From Thermococcus kodakarensis KOD1 (GTDB lineage: Archaea; Methanobacteriota_B; Thermococci; Thermococcales; Thermococcaceae): a stretch of 32,000 nt of DNA. Location of the stretch: assembly GCF_000009965.1 (NCBI RefSeq), contig NC_006624.1, forward strand, positions 1,290,001 to 1,322,000. The letters run 5' to 3'. Shown here in pieces: positions 21,075 to 31,274 of this stretch. The translations under genes were made by a program, and so were the position numbers. Each line of letters starts with the position of its first letter. The first letter of the stretch is position 1. The notes beneath the pieces are model-generated. The model had not been told where the DNA came from, ran no database searches, and saw only the letters and a program-made list of their open reading frames with translations.

Positions 21075-21151
21075 TGGTGCGGTGGCCGGGATTTGAACCC
21101 GGGCCAGCGGCGTGGCAGGCCGCTGTCCTAGCCAGGCTAGACTACCACCGC
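21075..21151 (-). tRNA. tRNA-Gly (anticodon GCC), CCA encoded
   Basis: The reverse complement folds as a cloverleaf: acceptor GCGGTGG/CCACCGC, D stem GTCT/GGAC, anticodon stem GCGGC/GCCGC with loop CTGCCAC, 4-nt variable region, T arm CCGGG-TTCAAAT-CCCGG, then discriminator A and CCA. Confidence 0.9.
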
Positions 21152-21185
21152 AGTTCCAGCCCGTAGGATACTCATTGGGGACTCG

Positions 21186-21193
21186 TTTATAAA
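21186..21193 (-). promoter_or_regulatory. TATA box (TTTATAAA, self-complementary) upstream of tRNA-Gly
   Basis: A consensus archaeal TATA octamer 35-42 nt upstream of the mature tRNA-Gly 5' end on the minus strand. Confidence 0.5.
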
Positions 21194-21219
21194 TCTTTCG
21201 GTCTGTTCCGAAGGTTAAA

Positions 21220-21227
21220 TTTATAAA
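21220..21227 (+). promoter_or_regulatory. TATA box (TTTATAAA) upstream of tRNA-Arg(GCG)
   Basis: A consensus TATA octamer ending 27 nt before the mature tRNA 5' end (21255). Confidence 0.55.
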
Positions 21228-21254
21228 GAGTCTTCAGAAAGGGTTAGCGGGCGT

Positions 21255-21332
21255 GCCCCGGTGGCCTAGTCTGGATAGGGCGCGAGGCTGCGGACCTCGA
21301 GGTCCGGGGTTCAAATCCCCGCCGGGGCGCCA
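21255..21332 (+). tRNA. tRNA-Arg (anticodon GCG), CCA encoded
   Basis: Acceptor GCCCCGG/CCGGGGC, D stem GCCT/GGGC, anticodon stem CGAGG/CCTCG with loop CTGCGGA, variable AGGTC, T arm CGGGG-TTCAAAT-CCCCG, discriminator G and CCA. Confidence 0.9.
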
Positions 21333-21574
21333 TAGAAACTTTTCTGGCGAAAAGTTTCATCAAAGAGGGAATGTCTTTTTAAACTGCTGAGTTTCAGCTA
21401 TTCTCATTACCAAATTAGCAGTTTTCAAGGGGTTTGCTCGCAGTATAACGCCCAACGAGCGTTAAAAAGAAGAAAAACCCAAATTCTCTTGCCTGTACAT
21501 TAGGAGAATCTCCATTCTCAGCCAATATCACGAAGACATTCAAGCTTTTGGTGAAGCTTTCTCCAAAAGCTTCC
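21333..21574 (+). repeat. Mosaic-array module type I, copy A1 (paralog of 30155-30397)
   Basis: It begins 2 nt after the tRNA CCA with the hairpin GAAACTTTTC-tggc-GAAAAGTTTC (21335-21358). The core hairpin is at 21447-21463. It ends with three AAGCTT hexamers (21542, 21554, 21567). It is alignable by eye over its whole length to B1, at roughly 70-75 percent. Confidence 0.85.
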
Positions 21575-21885
21575 TCGTGAAGTTTGATCAAGTTCGTGGT
21601 TCTCTTGAAATTGCCCTTCTAAAAGGATTTTCACGATAAATTAGCTAAAAGTGAGTGAATTCTTCGAGCATACTTAATTGGAAAGGAGTTTTCTCGCCTT
21701 GACGCCCTATGGGCGTCGATTAAAAAGCAAACTCACAAAGAGCGAGCGAACAAAAATGGAATTCACACTCCAAGACAGCATTCAAAAGGAAATCCACTCA
21801 AAACAACCCTCTAATCAAGAACCACAAACTTTGATGAAACTTTGCCGGGCAAAGTTTCTTTGGTGAAGCTTTCCCAAAAGCTTGC
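21575..21885 (+). repeat. Mosaic-array module type III, copy A2 (paralog of 30659-30946)
   Basis: The ~25-bp terminal inverted repeats 21580-21607 and 21816-21842 close the module. The core hairpin GACGCCC-tat-GGGCGTC is at 21701-21717. The 23-bp palindrome GAAACTTTGCC-g-GGCAAAGTTTC is at 21836-21858, followed by an AAGCTT hairpin at 21866-21883. Confidence 0.85.
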
Positions 21886-21904
21886 TAGAAAATGAAAGGG
21901 GAAT

Positions 21905-23248
21905 TCAGGCCCCCGCTCTCAGCTTCGCCAGTGCATCCTCCGCTGCCTGGAGTATCTGGTATCCGACTGGAGAAGCCGTGAGGAGCGGGTGAGTCGCTAT
22001 CTGGAGGGTGTAGAGCTCGCTAGCCGTAAGCCTCTTCTGTATGGCCAGTGCAAGAACGTTGATCATCTCGCCAACGCTCTTTCCACCGGCTAGCTGGGCA
22101 CCCAGAATGGCCCCCCTGTCCCTGGAGAATATAAGCTTGACCGTTACCATCGAAGTATCCTCGAACTTTGCTGGATGTCTGTCGGGGCCAGTAGCCCGTC
22201 CAACAATGACCTCAAAGCCCTCTCTCTTGGCGGCTTCCTCAGTTAGTCCTGCGGCGGCTAAGGTCAAGCCAGCAACGTGGGTGGAGTAAGCGCCTATTGT
22301 CCTCCTGTTCTCCCTGACTATCTGGAGCTTAAAGAGGTTCGCCCCTGCTATCCTCGCCTCGAAGGTTGCCGTTGAGGCTAGCATCAGAGGGAAGGGCTTT
22401 CCTGTAAAGAAGTCCCTGTGCTCGACGCAGTCGCCGACGGCGAATATGTCCGGGCAGGAGGTTCTCATGTACTCGTCAGTCCAGATGCCGTATCTTGTAA
22501 CTTTTAGACCTGTTTTTACTGCCAGCTCAACGTTTGGGCGGTAGCCCGTTGAGAGAATTACCAGATCGGCGGGGATTTCCCCACCTTCGACGAGCTTGAC
22601 ACCTTCAACGCGCTCTCTGCCGACTAGCCTCTCCACGTGCCCGTAAACAACGTTTATTCCAACTTCCTTGAGCCTGTTCTCGATCATCTCACTGAATTCG
22701 GGGTCGAAAGAGTTTCTCAACAGCCTGCTTCTGACAACTATCGTAACGTCCTTCCCGAGCTTTCTGATCTCGTCCCCAACTTCAAGGGCTATGAAACCGC
22801 CGCCGATAATGACAACCTTCTCGGCATCCTCTACTCTCTTCTTGAGCTCTTTGAGGTAGTGGTAGTCCTTGGAGACGGTGTACACACCCTCAAGCTCAAC
22901 GCCGGGGATGTCAGGGATCTGGGGTCTCGAACCAGTCGCCAGAACGAGCTTTTCCCAGCCTATCTCTCTCCCTGACTTCGTCAGGAGTGTCTTGGACTTG
23001 GGATTTATTTCCGTGACCTCATCAACCAGAACGTCGATGCCGAGGGGTTTGAGAAACCTCTCCGTTGGGAGAACATCATCCTCAACGCTCCTCAGGGTAC
23101 CGAAGATGTACGGAATCCCGCAAGGAATCATGGAAACGTCCTCTTTCTTGATCACGAGGACGCTTTTGTCGGGATAGAACCTCTTGGCAGAGATCGCAGC
23201 CGTTAGACCGCCAGCACTTCCACCTATAACAACCACATCGTACTTCAT
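21905..23248 (-). CDS. FAD-dependent pyridine nucleotide-disulfide oxidoreductase (NADH oxidase / NAD(P)H polysulfide or CoA-disulfide reductase family, single redox Cys)
   Basis: N-terminal FAD motif VVVIGGSAGG, a single-Cys motif SMIPCGIPY, an NAD(P) motif VVIIGGGFIALE and GD motif AVGDC. ATG 23248 is preceded by GGTGAGGT; the track start at 23260 is TTG. Confidence 0.87.
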   Translation of the reverse strand: MKYDVVVIGGSAGGLTAAISAKRFYPDKSVLVIKKEDVSMIPCGIPYIFGTLRSVEDDVLPTERFLKPLGIDVLVDEVTEINPKSKTLLTKSGREIGWEKLVLATGSRPQIPDIPGVELEGVYTVSKDYHYLKELKKRVEDAEKVVIIGGGFIALEVGDEIRKLGKDVTIVVRSRLLRNSFDPEFSEMIENRLKEVGINVVYGHVERLVGRERVEGVKLVEGGEIPADLVILSTGYRPNVELAVKTGLKVTRYGIWTDEYMRTSCPDIFAVGDCVEHRDFFTGKPFPLMLASTATFEARIAGANLFKLQIVRENRRTIGAYSTHVAGLTLAAAGLTEEAAKREGFEVIVGRATGPDRHPAKFEDTSMVTVKLIFSRDRGAILGAQLAGGKSVGEMINVLALAIQKRLTASELYTLQIATHPLLTASPVGYQILQAAEDALAKLRAGA

Positions 23249-25810: not shown

Positions 25811-25980
25811 AGGTATCACCAATGATATATACAACTTCAACATATAAAAAGCTTTCCTAAAGACATTCGTTAAAAAATGATTCGACAATCGACGAATAAT
25901 TTGAAAAAGCACCCAATCCGTCCGACGAAAACCATAAAAATGCTAAGAACAGCCAAAAAAGAAAAACAGCCCTATCAGAC

Positions 25981-26091
25981 TCACCTACGGAGCATCTCAA
26001 CGTACTCAAGCTCCTCAGGAATCGGCCTTCTCTTTCTCCTCTCGTTCTCCTTGGTGAACATGTACTCGTAAACGAGCATCCACGGAAGCAT
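25981..26091 (-). CDS. Candidate small ORF (36 aa: MLPWMLVYEYMFTKENERRKRRPIPEELEYVEMLRR)
   Basis: Not in the ORF track because it is under 60 aa. The ATG is preceded by GGGGGTGAGAGA (strong SD), and a TTTTTAAA TATA candidate lies about 50 nt upstream. Codons are the GC3-rich type used by the housekeeping genes here (GAG, AAG, AGG, TAC, CTC). The overlapping 80-aa and 64-aa track ORFs encode low-complexity sequence. Confidence 0.35.
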   Translation of the reverse strand: MLPWMLVYEYMFTKENERRKRRPIPEELEYVEMLRR

Positions 26092-30047: not shown

Positions 30048-30076
30048 CCCTTCTCTAAGAGGGATTAGCGGGCAGT

Positions 30077-30154
30077 GGACCGGTAGCCTAGCCAGGATAG
30101 GGCGGCGGCCTCCTAAGCCGCAGGTCCGGGGTTCGAAGCCCCGCCGGTCCGCCA
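30077..30154 (+). tRNA. tRNA-Arg (anticodon CCT), CCA encoded
   Basis: Acceptor GGACCGG/CCGGTCC, D stem GCCT/GGGC, anticodon stem GCGGC/GCCGC with loop CTCCTAA, variable AGGTC, T arm CGGGG-TTCGAAG-CCCCG, discriminator G and CCA. Confidence 0.9.
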
Positions 30155-30397
30155 TAGAAACTTTTCTAATGAAAAGTTTCACCAAAGAGCGAATGTCCTT
30201 TTGAGCGCCCTGCTTTTCAGTGATTCTCACAATCAATTTGCAATTCTCAAGGGGTTTGCTCGGAGTATAACGCCCAAAGGGCGTTAAAAAAGAAGAAAAA
30301 CCCGCACTTCCCTGCCCATCCATCAAGAGAATCTAACCTTATCAAGCCAATTCTCGGAGACATTCGAGCTTTTGGTGAAGCTTTTCCAAAAAGCTTC
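30155..30397 (+). repeat. Mosaic-array module type I, copy B1
   Basis: Hairpin GAAACTTTTC-taat-GAAAAGTTTC at 30157-30180. Core hairpin AACGCCC-aaa-GGGCGTT at 30269-30285. Terminal GAGCTT/AAGCTT/AAGCTT triplet at 30366, 30378 and 30391. Collinear with A1. Confidence 0.85.
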
Positions 30398-30658
30398 AGC
30401 GCTGGCGGAAGATTGGTATGCTTTCTTTTTAGATATGCCTGCTTTTGAAGGGTTTACTTCCAATTGGCTGATTCAAAAGGATTTTCTCACCGTATAGTGC
30501 CCGAAGGGCACTAAAAAGAAAGTCAAAAATCACAATTAGCGCGGGGATTTTGGAGTTAAACCCGCGCGAGCCTGCCTTCTTGAGAGCATACACTCCCTAA
30601 CAGGCGAGATCGAGGAGAAGGGCACACACTTTTGGTGAAGCTTTTTCTAAAAGCTTCC
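30398..30658 (+). repeat. Mosaic-array module type II, copy B2
   Basis: It starts AGCGCTGGCGGAAG. Core hairpin AGTGCCC-gaa-GGGCACT at 30496-30512. Long-range complement GTATGCT (30416-30422) / AGCATAC (30585-30591). It ends with the hairpin GAAGCTTTT-tct-AAAAGCTTC (30637-30657). Collinear with B4 at about 70 percent by eye. Confidence 0.85.
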
Positions 30659-30946
30659 TGCGCGAAGTTTGATCAAGGTTCGTAGCTCTTTTTCGGAATG
30701 CCAATTCACCGTGATTTTCCAACTCAAATGGCTTTTTGAGAGTGAGAACCCTTAATCCACCCTGTCAACTCGTGTTTAACTCTAAATCGGCGCCCTTTGG
30801 GCGTCAAAGAAAAGAAAACACCCTCTTCAAGAAGCTTCCTAAAAGGTTCTCACTCAAAAATGAGCACTTGCAGTCTAAAATCCTAAAATAAAACCCTCTT
30901 GAAGAAGAGCTACAAACTTTGATGAAACTTTGCCTGGCAAAGTTTC
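30659..30946 (+). repeat. Mosaic-array module type III, copy B3
   Basis: The 30-nt terminal inverted repeats 30665-30694 and 30901-30930 match at 26/30. Core hairpin GGCGCCC-ttt-GGGCGTC at 30789-30805. It ends with the 23-bp palindrome GAAACTTTGCC-t-GGCAAAGTTTC at 30924-30946. Confidence 0.85.
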
Positions 30947-31205
30947 AGCGCCGGCGGAAAAGAGGTATGCGTTTTTAATGAACTAATTTTTGAGTGGGTT
31001 TACTTTCGAGTTGCCAGACTTACAGGATTTTCCCCACAGTATAGTGCTCTTTGAGCGCTAAAAAGAAAGTTCGAAATCACAATTAACGAGAGATTTTTAA
31101 GAACAAACCCACACGCGAACCTGCTTTCTGGGGAGCATACACTCCCGATAAGCAAAGTTCGAGAAGAAGGGCACACTTTTGGTCAAGCTTTTTCCAAAAG
31201 CTTGC
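30947..31205 (+). repeat. Mosaic-array module type II, copy B4
   Basis: It starts AGCGCCGGCGGAAA. Core hairpin AGTGCTC-ttt-GAGCGCT at 31043-31059. It ends with the hairpin AAGCTTTT-tcc-AAAAGCTT (31185-31203). Confidence 0.85.
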
Positions 31206-31274
31206 TGGAAACGAAAGGCTTAAATACTTCAACACTTTTATTTTCTTCAGGTAAGAAAAAAGGAGGTGGTGGCC

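Follow-up and report, generated by a model that had tools for sequence, protein, structure and literature searches.

Arrays of hairpin-bounded non-coding repeats directly behind tRNA genes in Thermococcus kodakarensis KOD1 and other Thermococcus

The stretch of the Thermococcus kodakarensis KOD1 chromosome analysed here (the window; 32,000 nucleotides of NC_006624.1, genome coordinate = window position + 1,290,000) contains two gene-free stretches occupied by hairpin-bounded repeat units: array A (21333-21899), directly 3' of tRNA-Arg(GCG), and array B (30155-31219), directly 3' of tRNA-Arg(CCT). The present analysis concerns the segment 21333-21885 of array A and the repeat family to which it belongs. 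At locus A the neighbours are TK1480, tRNA-Gly and TK1481; locus B is flanked by an Lrp/AsnC regulator and a phosphoesterase-like gene. The coordinates published by Jaeger et al. (2014; PMC4247193) for TK1480 (1309890-1310960), TKt23, TKt24 (1311255-1311332) and TK1481 (1311905-1313248) match the window exactly. The genes next to the arrays are:

21075-21151, minus strand: tRNA-Gly(GCC) (ARAGORN).
21255-21332, plus strand: tRNA-Arg(GCG), TKt24 (ARAGORN, Rfam tRNA, published coordinates); its encoded CCA end anchors array A.
21905-23248, minus strand: TK1481, NADH oxidase-type flavoprotein, converging on array A.
30077-30154, plus strand: tRNA-Arg(CCT), TKt25 (ARAGORN); anchors array B.

Six units of three types (I-III) are distinguished, two in array A (A1, A2) and four in array B (B1 to B4), with boundary hairpins of two kinds (hp1, hp2) and terminal inverted repeats (TIRs). 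Array A comprises the following parts:

21335-21358, plus strand: hp1a, tRNA-adjacent hairpin GAAACTTTTC-TGGC-GAAAAGTTTC, 2 nt after CCA and followed by ATCAAAG (-10.9 kcal/mol, z -4.5).
21359-21574, plus strand: body of A1 (type I) with its own 3' hairpin hp2a; homolog of B1.
21352-21380 and 21531-21559, plus strand: left and right TIRs of A1, whose ends pair in the fold (z -3.5).
21376-21383, plus strand: TATA-like TTTTTAAA; a published orphan transcription start (21406, plus) follows 23-30 nt downstream.
21447-21463, plus strand: core GC hairpin of A1, AACGCCC-AAC-GAGCGTT, then AAAAAGAAG, within GGGGTTT..AAACCC.
21541-21573, plus strand: hp2a, CAAGCTTTTGG-TGAAGCTTTCT-CCAAAAGCTTC, marking the 3' end of A1; inner hairpin at 21553-21573.
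21575-21858, plus strand: A2 (type III, G2 subfamily), ending in hp1b at 21836-21858 (alignment; nhmmer matches to loci L259, L210, L204 and others); its left TIR GAAGTTTGATCAAGTTCGTGGTTC pairs with its right TIR GAACCACAAACTTTGATGAAACTT.
21701-21717, plus strand: core GC hairpin of A2, GACGCCC-TAT-GGGCGTC (-14.6 kcal/mol, z -3.4).
21859-21885, plus strand: hp2b, array-terminal hairpin abutting hp1b; in T. stetteri the right end of a type II unit.
21886-21914, minus strand: tail of array A, a GC hairpin GGGGGCCTGAATTCCCC plus TTTCATTTTC; terminator-like signal of TK1481, outside the repeat.

Array B is longer:

30155-30397, plus strand: B1 (type I); its hairpins are hp1 (30157-30180) and hp2 (30365-30397).
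30398-30657, plus strand: B2 (type II), opening with AGCGCTGGCGG, the right half of a hairpin (hp3) of other species.
30658-30946, plus strand: B3 (type III, G1 subfamily), folding into a long rod (z -5.8).
30947-31205, plus strand: B4 (type II), between hp1 and hp2, opening with the variant AGCGCCGGCGG.
31206-31235, plus strand: tail of array B, the transcription factor B recognition element (BRE)/TATA region GAAACGAAAGGCTTAAATA of the downstream gene; in T. stetteri present without an array.

Within a type the units are alike over their whole length. In global alignments based on the unit boundaries of the first-pass annotation, A1 (21333-21574) and B1 share 81% identity (z = 24 versus shuffles), B2 and B4 75% (z = 30), and A2 (21575-21885) and B3 60% (z = 13; 60-65% overall); pairs of different type reach 52-57% (z = 4-9), so that all six units are distantly related. 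Identity profiles in 30-column windows are at least 66% everywhere for A1/B1; for A2/B3 they are 80-94% at the ends, 73% round the core hairpin and 43-66% elsewhere. The likeness thus extends beyond the hairpins, and the first-pass annotation was right in aligning A1 with B1 along its full length, and in describing A2 as sharing both ends and the core hairpin with B3 around a more diverged interior. It had also noted the order type I then type III without type II units, and indeed hp1b and hp2b abut in array A at the exact site that holds the type II unit B4 in array B. Its claim of a tail common to both arrays stands as to sequence, for CTAGAAAATGAAAGG (array A) and CTGGAAACGAAAGG (array B) agree except for one substitution and a one-base indel, but not as an array feature: the former is the T-rich run of the terminator-like hairpin of TK1481, and the latter the downstream BRE/TATA region. 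The hp2 pattern TTTGGTSAAGCTTT..AAAAGCTT occurs five times in the window and the hp1 pattern GAAACTTT..AAAGTTTC four times, neither of them once in 100 shuffles, and nhmmer with all collected units detected no copies beyond arrays A and B in the 32-kb window.

The units are cassettes of 210-300 bp with TIRs of about 30 bp (pairing over about 25-35 bp in every unit), a central GC hairpin, usually followed by an A-run and enclosed by GGGTT..AACCC, and a 3' boundary hairpin with the lower stem SAARCTTT/AAAGYTTS. The right-hand hairpin follows the unit type in the window arrays (hp2 for types I and II, hp1 for type III) and the left-hand hairpin belongs to the upstream neighbour, such that type II stands after hp2 (B2) or after hp1 (B4); this places the junction between units at the 3' foot of a hairpin. 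In several species, a third tRNA-adjacent hairpin, hp3 (CAGCCCTTTC..GAAAGCGCTG, then GCGG), is found ahead of type II units. Other Thermococcus arrays also contain, beside their units, a linker module of extra GC-rich hairpins (CGTCGAGC..GCTCGACG; ACGGGAC..GTCCCGT) that is absent from the window (L204 1-40, L210 337-375, L252 2905-2925, L265 11893-11920; L numbers denote collected loci).

The hairpins vary by compensatory changes. Four variants of the lower stem occur among 39 boundary hairpins, all perfectly compensatory, and in 27 of the 39 the 8-bp stem is extended upward by at least two Watson-Crick pairs, against 2.8 such hairpins expected when the interiors are shuffled; three alternative pairings are used for this (GC/GC, TC/GA, TG/CA). 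The TIRs, too, show compensatory variants specific to subfamilies (GTGATTC/GAATCAC, GTAGCTC/GAGCTAC, GTGGTTC/GAACCAC). It is thus the pairing that is maintained; since palindromic DNA would give the same pattern as RNA, pairing does not tell which molecule is selected. Outside the ends and the centre, the arms of a unit are only 57-65% complementary (baseline 50%), which is lower than the 60-81% identity of corresponding arms in related units and rules out a perfect palindrome over the whole unit. Small proteins encoded in the units were rejected, as the open reading frames (ORFs) are short and not conserved between A2 and B3, and no conserved ORF was found in the units. Rfam yielded only tRNA and 5S rRNA, both in gathering-threshold scans of the window and 12 related loci and with E up to 10 over both arrays. 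A CRISPR array (identical repeats of 24-40 bp, unique spacers of 30-40 bp and a leader) was also rejected: one hairpin follows another at 210-290 bp, and the DNA in between recurs from locus to locus.

The family extends through the genus. Loci were collected by two pattern scans and by synteny, and comprise two metagenome-assembled genomes (MAGs; L089, L113), thirteen vent metagenome contigs (50-55% G+C), T. stetteri, Thermococcus sp. 21S9, T. indicus and Thermococcus sp. AM4; a scan of public genomes with the hp2 pattern contributed two Thermococcus loci among the matches listed, most others being palindromes of Acetobacteraceae and Oscillospiraceae. Subfamilies recur across species in nhmmer searches (A2 to L259, E = 1e-17; B3 to L089, E = 3e-16), and truncated and mini-derivatives retain their ends (L252, L265). 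In the other Thermococcus, arrays begin 0-6 nt past the 3' end of tRNA-Arg(TCT), Val(TAC), Val(GAC), Glu(TTC), Leu(TAG), Asp(GTC) (within a 5S-tRNA-Asp operon), Pro(TGG), Gly(GCC), Gly(CCC), Thr(GGT) and others, and in 116 kb of unselected Thermococcus sequence all nhmmer matches fall into tRNA 3' flanks. With so many tRNA species carrying arrays, the link is to tRNA genes generally, and specificity for tRNA-Arg was rejected.

The T. kodakarensis genome may hold further arrays. By our count, the 55 unnamed orphan transcription starts in Jaeger et al. (2014; PMC4247193) include about 23 that are found on the 3' side of a tRNA gene at a distance of up to about 1.2 kb, and the published gene coordinates leave gene-free gaps after TKt08 (681 bp), TKt16 (1051 bp), TKt32 (400 bp), TKt33 (513 bp) and TKt35 (1206 bp), which suggests more arrays elsewhere, from published tables rather than from sequence. 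TK0495 (1263 bp) converges on the gap after TKt08. Within the window, a direct repeat of 128 nt (80% identity; 21253-21380 versus 30075-30202) consists of each tRNA-Arg and the first 48 nt behind it, so that the tRNA and the start of the array may have duplicated or been homogenised together.

Linkage to tRNA 3' ends raises the possibility that the arrays are decayed plasmids or viruses that were integrated successively into tRNA genes, e.g. elements of the pT26-2/TKV type at tRNA-Arg. tRNA genes, including tRNA-Arg, are integration sites of Thermococcales elements (PMC6972569), and the sequence directly after the reconstituted tRNA 3' end would then be derived from the element. However, the arrays contain no partial tRNA copies (attachment-site repeats) between units and no remnants of an integrase or of other genes, plasmid and phage collections gave no match to array B in blastn, matches to the hairpin pattern in IMG/VR are unrelated AT-rich contigs, and the same subfamilies occur with intact ends behind many tRNAs and in many species. 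We consider this origin very improbable.

The unit content of the array turns over between species at orthologous sites. Where T. kodakarensis has a type I and a type III unit behind tRNA-Arg(GCG), T. stetteri (TK1480 homolog 83% identical) has about 70 nt followed by a single type II unit, with the same hp2 and tail at the end, Thermococcus sp. 21S9 has a G1 unit, a truncated type II unit and a partial G2 unit, and T. indicus has a G1 and a type II unit. Units are missing altogether from T. stetteri at the site of array B; a stretch of 330 nt, unrelated in sequence, leads into the same promoter region GAAACGAAAGGCTTAAATA. This turnover supports the view of the first-pass annotation that units were gained or lost as modules rather than copied as a single block, and speaks against an indispensable local function. 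In T. indicus, the divergent pair tRNA-Gly(GCC)/tRNA-Arg(GCG) is inverted (L266 11135-11396 versus window 21075-21332); the array keeps its side despite the inversion and therefore now stands behind tRNA-Gly.

The boundary hairpin is also found in tRNA introns of other archaea. The pattern GAAACTTT(3-10)AAAGTTTCAYCAAA gave more than 120 metagenome matches, and 125 occurrences of the motif were classed: nine lie in tRNA genes within introns, five directly past a tRNA 3' end (the Thermococcus type) and 11 no more than 400 nt away from a tRNA. Linkage to tRNAs is far more frequent than tRNA density would give; many other matches are unrelated repeats on bacterial or giant-virus contigs. In 13 of 14 intron or 3'-end cases, the hairpin with an AUCAAA tail is on the tRNA strand. 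Judged by eye, the tRNAs with such introns are genuine. The intron sites are:

L226, 1176-1295: tRNA-Arg(TCT) with a 47-nt intron, judged a genuine tRNA by eye.
L153, 1374-1481, minus strand: tRNA-Gly(TCC), judged genuine by eye.
L216, 2857-2964, minus strand: tRNA-Arg(CCT), judged genuine by eye.
L145, 5099-5218, minus strand: tRNA intron site.
L156, 475-669, minus strand: 119-nt intron with an hp1-type hairpin, a similar hairpin just upstream and an hp2-like stretch.
L237, L235, L246 and L257: further intron sites.

The hosts are low-GC uncultured archaea, and the contig L153 belongs to DPANN (the best matches of its aIF2-gamma are Nanoarchaeota/Woesearchaeota MAGs). By eye, some of the introns are at anticodon-loop positions and others appear to be in the D-loop or T-loop; the hairpin lies well inside the intron, on the far side of the helix formed with the anticodon region. 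The sharing of the hairpin may go back to a mobile module or to a binding partner in common.

For these observations we favour, tentatively, the explanation that the segment 21333-21885 is one of at least two arrays of Thermococcus-wide non-coding cassettes that are selfish or neutral and that join at the 3' foot of an existing hairpin. A first docking hairpin would be provided 0-6 nt past the CCA end of the tRNA; since each cassette would bring its own hairpin, the docking site would be recreated with every insertion, which would result in head-to-tail growth and in mosaics of subfamilies. The shared hairpins, with homologous recombination between them, would allow loss or exchange of units and could explain part of the exchange. 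The cassettes would have settled in a place where they do no harm, the trailer that is discarded from the tRNA transcript, and would be weakly transcribed from internal promoters; any termination at their T/A runs would be a by-product. The anatomy, the linkage to tRNAs, the subfamilies, the turnover and the compensatory changes of the hairpins are observed, whereas joining at the hairpin foot and selfishness are conclusions drawn from them.

Several points weigh against this explanation. No transposase, integrase or other mobilising enzyme was found linked to the arrays, and no target-site duplication at the junctions, where nothing but the hairpin of 26-31 nt recurs as a flank. The evidence for gain and loss is a comparison between species; the copies of T. 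kodakarensis are known by sequence from the two window arrays; and the sole insertion sequence (IS) inspected, a TnpB element of T. indicus, has different, GC-rich end hairpins. Furthermore, subfamilies have lasted across species at 60-75% identity with pairing kept, the hairpin and its AUCAAA tail are on the tRNA strand in 13 of the 14 cases given above, and for several units in first position the tRNA-sense strand folds better by 15-24 kcal/mol; such persistence, strand bias and sense-strand folding would also fit a functional RNA.

The units could accordingly be genes for structured non-coding RNAs that are made with or just after the tRNA, freed by tRNA 3'-end processing and protected from exonucleases by their hairpins. 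The units share the orientation of the tRNA, with the first hairpin 0-6 nt past CCA; as single strands they fold better than shuffles (A1, z -3.5; A2, z -2.7; B2, z -2.3; B3, z -5.8; overall -2.3 to -5.8); on the sense strand, U-G pairs of the closing stem are conserved; the central hairpin and the closing stems change in a compensatory manner; and the copies in tRNA introns are transcribed. Transcription starts have also been published inside A1, A2 and B2 by differential RNA sequencing (PMC4247193), i.e. 1311406 (plus; window 21406, in A1), 1311594 (minus; window 21594, at the beginning of A2 and reading via hp2a into A1) and 1320419 (minus; window 30419, in B2). These starts, however, are on both strands and within units rather than at their boundaries, the T. 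kodakarensis units have no sense-strand folding advantage, their interior arms are little more complementary than the baseline, there is no Rfam match, and whole arrays are missing or replaced at orthologous sites in a close relative. The published circular-RNA tables, in the parts covered (ranges 13113xx-13118xx and 13201xx-13206xx), contain no unit-length circular RNA. On balance, we regard RNA genes as a rather unlikely alternative to selfish or neutral cassettes. A circular, viroid-like RNA cut at a bulge-helix-bulge was rejected, since the closing stems form a symmetric internal loop or a perfect helix and unit-length circles are missing from these tables. The tables do list one junction at the array's edge (two reads), 1311251-1311347 (window 21251-21347), which spans tRNA-Arg(GCG) and 15 nt up to the loop of hp1.

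The first-pass annotation had proposed that the boundary hairpins, with T4-T5 runs on both strands, serve in part as bidirectional terminators or insulators between the tRNA genes and the convergent protein genes. T4-T5 and A4-A6 runs are indeed found on both strands throughout the arrays, which lie between a tRNA and a convergent gene (array A) or a downstream promoter (array B), and some related units have a GC hairpin followed by T5-T6 (L206, L144). Archaeal termination depends mainly on U-tracts together with aCPSF1/FttA (PMC8716108, PMC7515710). The boundary hairpins themselves, however, are A/T-rich and carry only T3-T5, and hp1 variants such as GAAACTTTGCC have only T3; a terminator would be recognised by a U-tract of at least five on the transcribed strand where transcripts end, in bacteria by a GC hairpin with a U-run behind it. 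A better terminator-like site lies outside the array, where TK1481 has a GC hairpin over its stop codon followed by TTTCATTTTC (21914-21898, minus), a signal that is kept in T. stetteri and that transcription would meet before the first array hairpin. Moreover, 570-1065 bp of structured repeats are more than a terminator needs, locus B of T. stetteri does without an array, and within tRNA introns termination at the same hairpin would destroy the tRNA. Termination or insulation as the main role is therefore distinctly improbable; it is plausible that transcripts end within the arrays to some extent as a side effect, but this explains neither the structure of the arrays nor their turnover.

In layout the arrays resemble several known systems, yet they appear to fit none of them in every defining feature. 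Like the repetitive extragenic palindromic sequences and bacterial interspersed mosaic elements (REP/BIME) of enterobacteria, they are non-coding mosaics of short imperfect palindromes at the 3' ends of transcription units, variable between loci and strains, and coincide with assembly breaks; they differ in the structured bodies of 200-280 bp between hairpins (10-30 bp linkers in REP/BIME), in being tied to tRNA 3' ends and in their archaeal host. No RAYT-type transposase came up around the arrays, though no search aimed at RAYT was made. With integron arrays (attC sites, e.g. the Vibrio repeats, VCR) they share a hairpin site at the end of each unit, a boundary at its foot, a fixed primary site adjoining the array, compensatory stem changes and mosaic gain and loss; unlike integron cassettes, they lack ORFs and their hairpins measure 20-31 nt rather than 57-141 nt. 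No intI integrase, attI-like site or promoter was found beside the arrays, nor an integrase at the syntenic loci, and the likeness to integrons is one of layout only.

MITEs (miniature transposable elements with inverted repeats) are similarly small and intergenic, with TIRs of about 30 bp, the potential to fold into long hairpins, subfamilies and deletion derivatives that keep their ends; unlike these, the Thermococcus units have no target-site duplication, are placed strictly behind tRNAs and are stacked head-to-tail at shared hairpins. For a parent IS with the same ends, one element was inspected, the TnpB element of T. indicus (L266 16460-17719), and its ends differ. With the palindrome-associated transposable elements (PATEs) of the IS200/IS605 family, the units have in common hairpins at both ends, apparent insertion 3' of a specific structure or sequence without duplication, an adjacent TTGAT and strand orientation; IS200/IS605 elements have no TIRs, whereas the units have true ones. 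A link to these PATEs or to TnpB was rejected, given the TIRs and the GC-rich hairpins of the T. indicus element (CCTCGCC..GGCGGGAGG), which are unlike SAARCTTT..AAAGYTTS. This element encodes a protein of 419 amino acids (OrfB_IS605 and a Cas12f1-like TNB domain) and splits an ARMT1-like gene (L266 16366-17746) that is intact in Thermococcus sp. 21S9 (L265 15997-16851).

Transposed tRNA introns are known from archaea, with related introns reported at many tRNA positions in the Thermoproteales. There, too, one short module occurs in various tRNA genes and positions, and always in discarded parts of the precursor; the Thermococcus module differs in residing in the 3' trailer and in its bodies of 200-280 bp, and no bulge-helix-bulge motif was found at unit boundaries in the predicted folds. 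A further, unlikely reading joins the two settings: the hairpin GAAACUUU(n)..(n)AAAGUUUC with AUCAAA would be an old, cross-phylum docking module associated with tRNAs, and the Thermococcus cassettes an elaborated form, copied or inserted at its foot by some machinery. The home of such a module may be the discarded parts of tRNA precursors, i.e. introns at canonical and non-canonical positions in DPANN and 3' trailers in Thermococcus. If so, it would represent a new hairpin-directed, tRNA-targeted system of mobile cassettes in Archaea, possibly operating via single-stranded DNA or RNA, and the mechanism of archaeal tRNA 'intron transposition' would become testable if the link to DPANN introns is true.

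The family is best placed among the interspersed palindromic mosaic repeats or miniature mobile elements, as a variant that is new, archaeal and linked to tRNA. A literature search by topic and by motif sequences found no description of it; this search did not cover the T. kodakarensis genome paper, where an early mention is possible. T. kodakarensis is a main archaeal genetic model and the arrays are unannotated there. Many of the 'orphan, species-specific small RNAs' of its transcriptome probably stem from them. Treating the arrays as a single repeat family linked to the 3' ends of tRNAs would tidy non-coding RNA catalogues and would also explain assembly breaks and local rearrangements beside tRNA genes. 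The arrays offer a tractable system for the gain and loss of hairpin-bounded DNA in an archaeon with few classical transposases.

TK1481 is present in many public read sets, and three of the four contigs returned end 6 to 89 bp past TK1481, either at the first array hairpins or ahead of them, which is what a repeat would lead one to expect. For a relative with 92% identity, the contigs run out within about 150 bp of the TK1480 homolog, short of the array.

Two other sets of repeats came up in the pattern scans. The hp2-type pattern is highly repeated in Acetobacteraceae (Komagataeibacter, Novacetimonas, Acetobacter) and in MAGs of Oscillospiraceae/Acutalibacteraceae, with one match in a Micrarchaeota MAG (L115) among the matches listed; all of these are probably unrelated families of palindromes. 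On metagenome contigs (L147, L152, L155, L173, L176, L177, L179, L189, L193, L197, L200 and others), a repeat consisting of a GC hairpin (..CCCCGAACCCCG) with GAAACTTTTGAAAAAGTTTCATCAAAACTTTAA behind it occurs up to three times per contig and is probably an unrelated bacterial repeat.

Elsewhere in the window, the segment 25577-26349 has no ORF of at least 120 amino acids and no Rfam match, and small genes are called there in relatives; a published orphan transcription start (26297, minus) and a published circular-RNA junction (25956-26044, 89 nt) fall within it.

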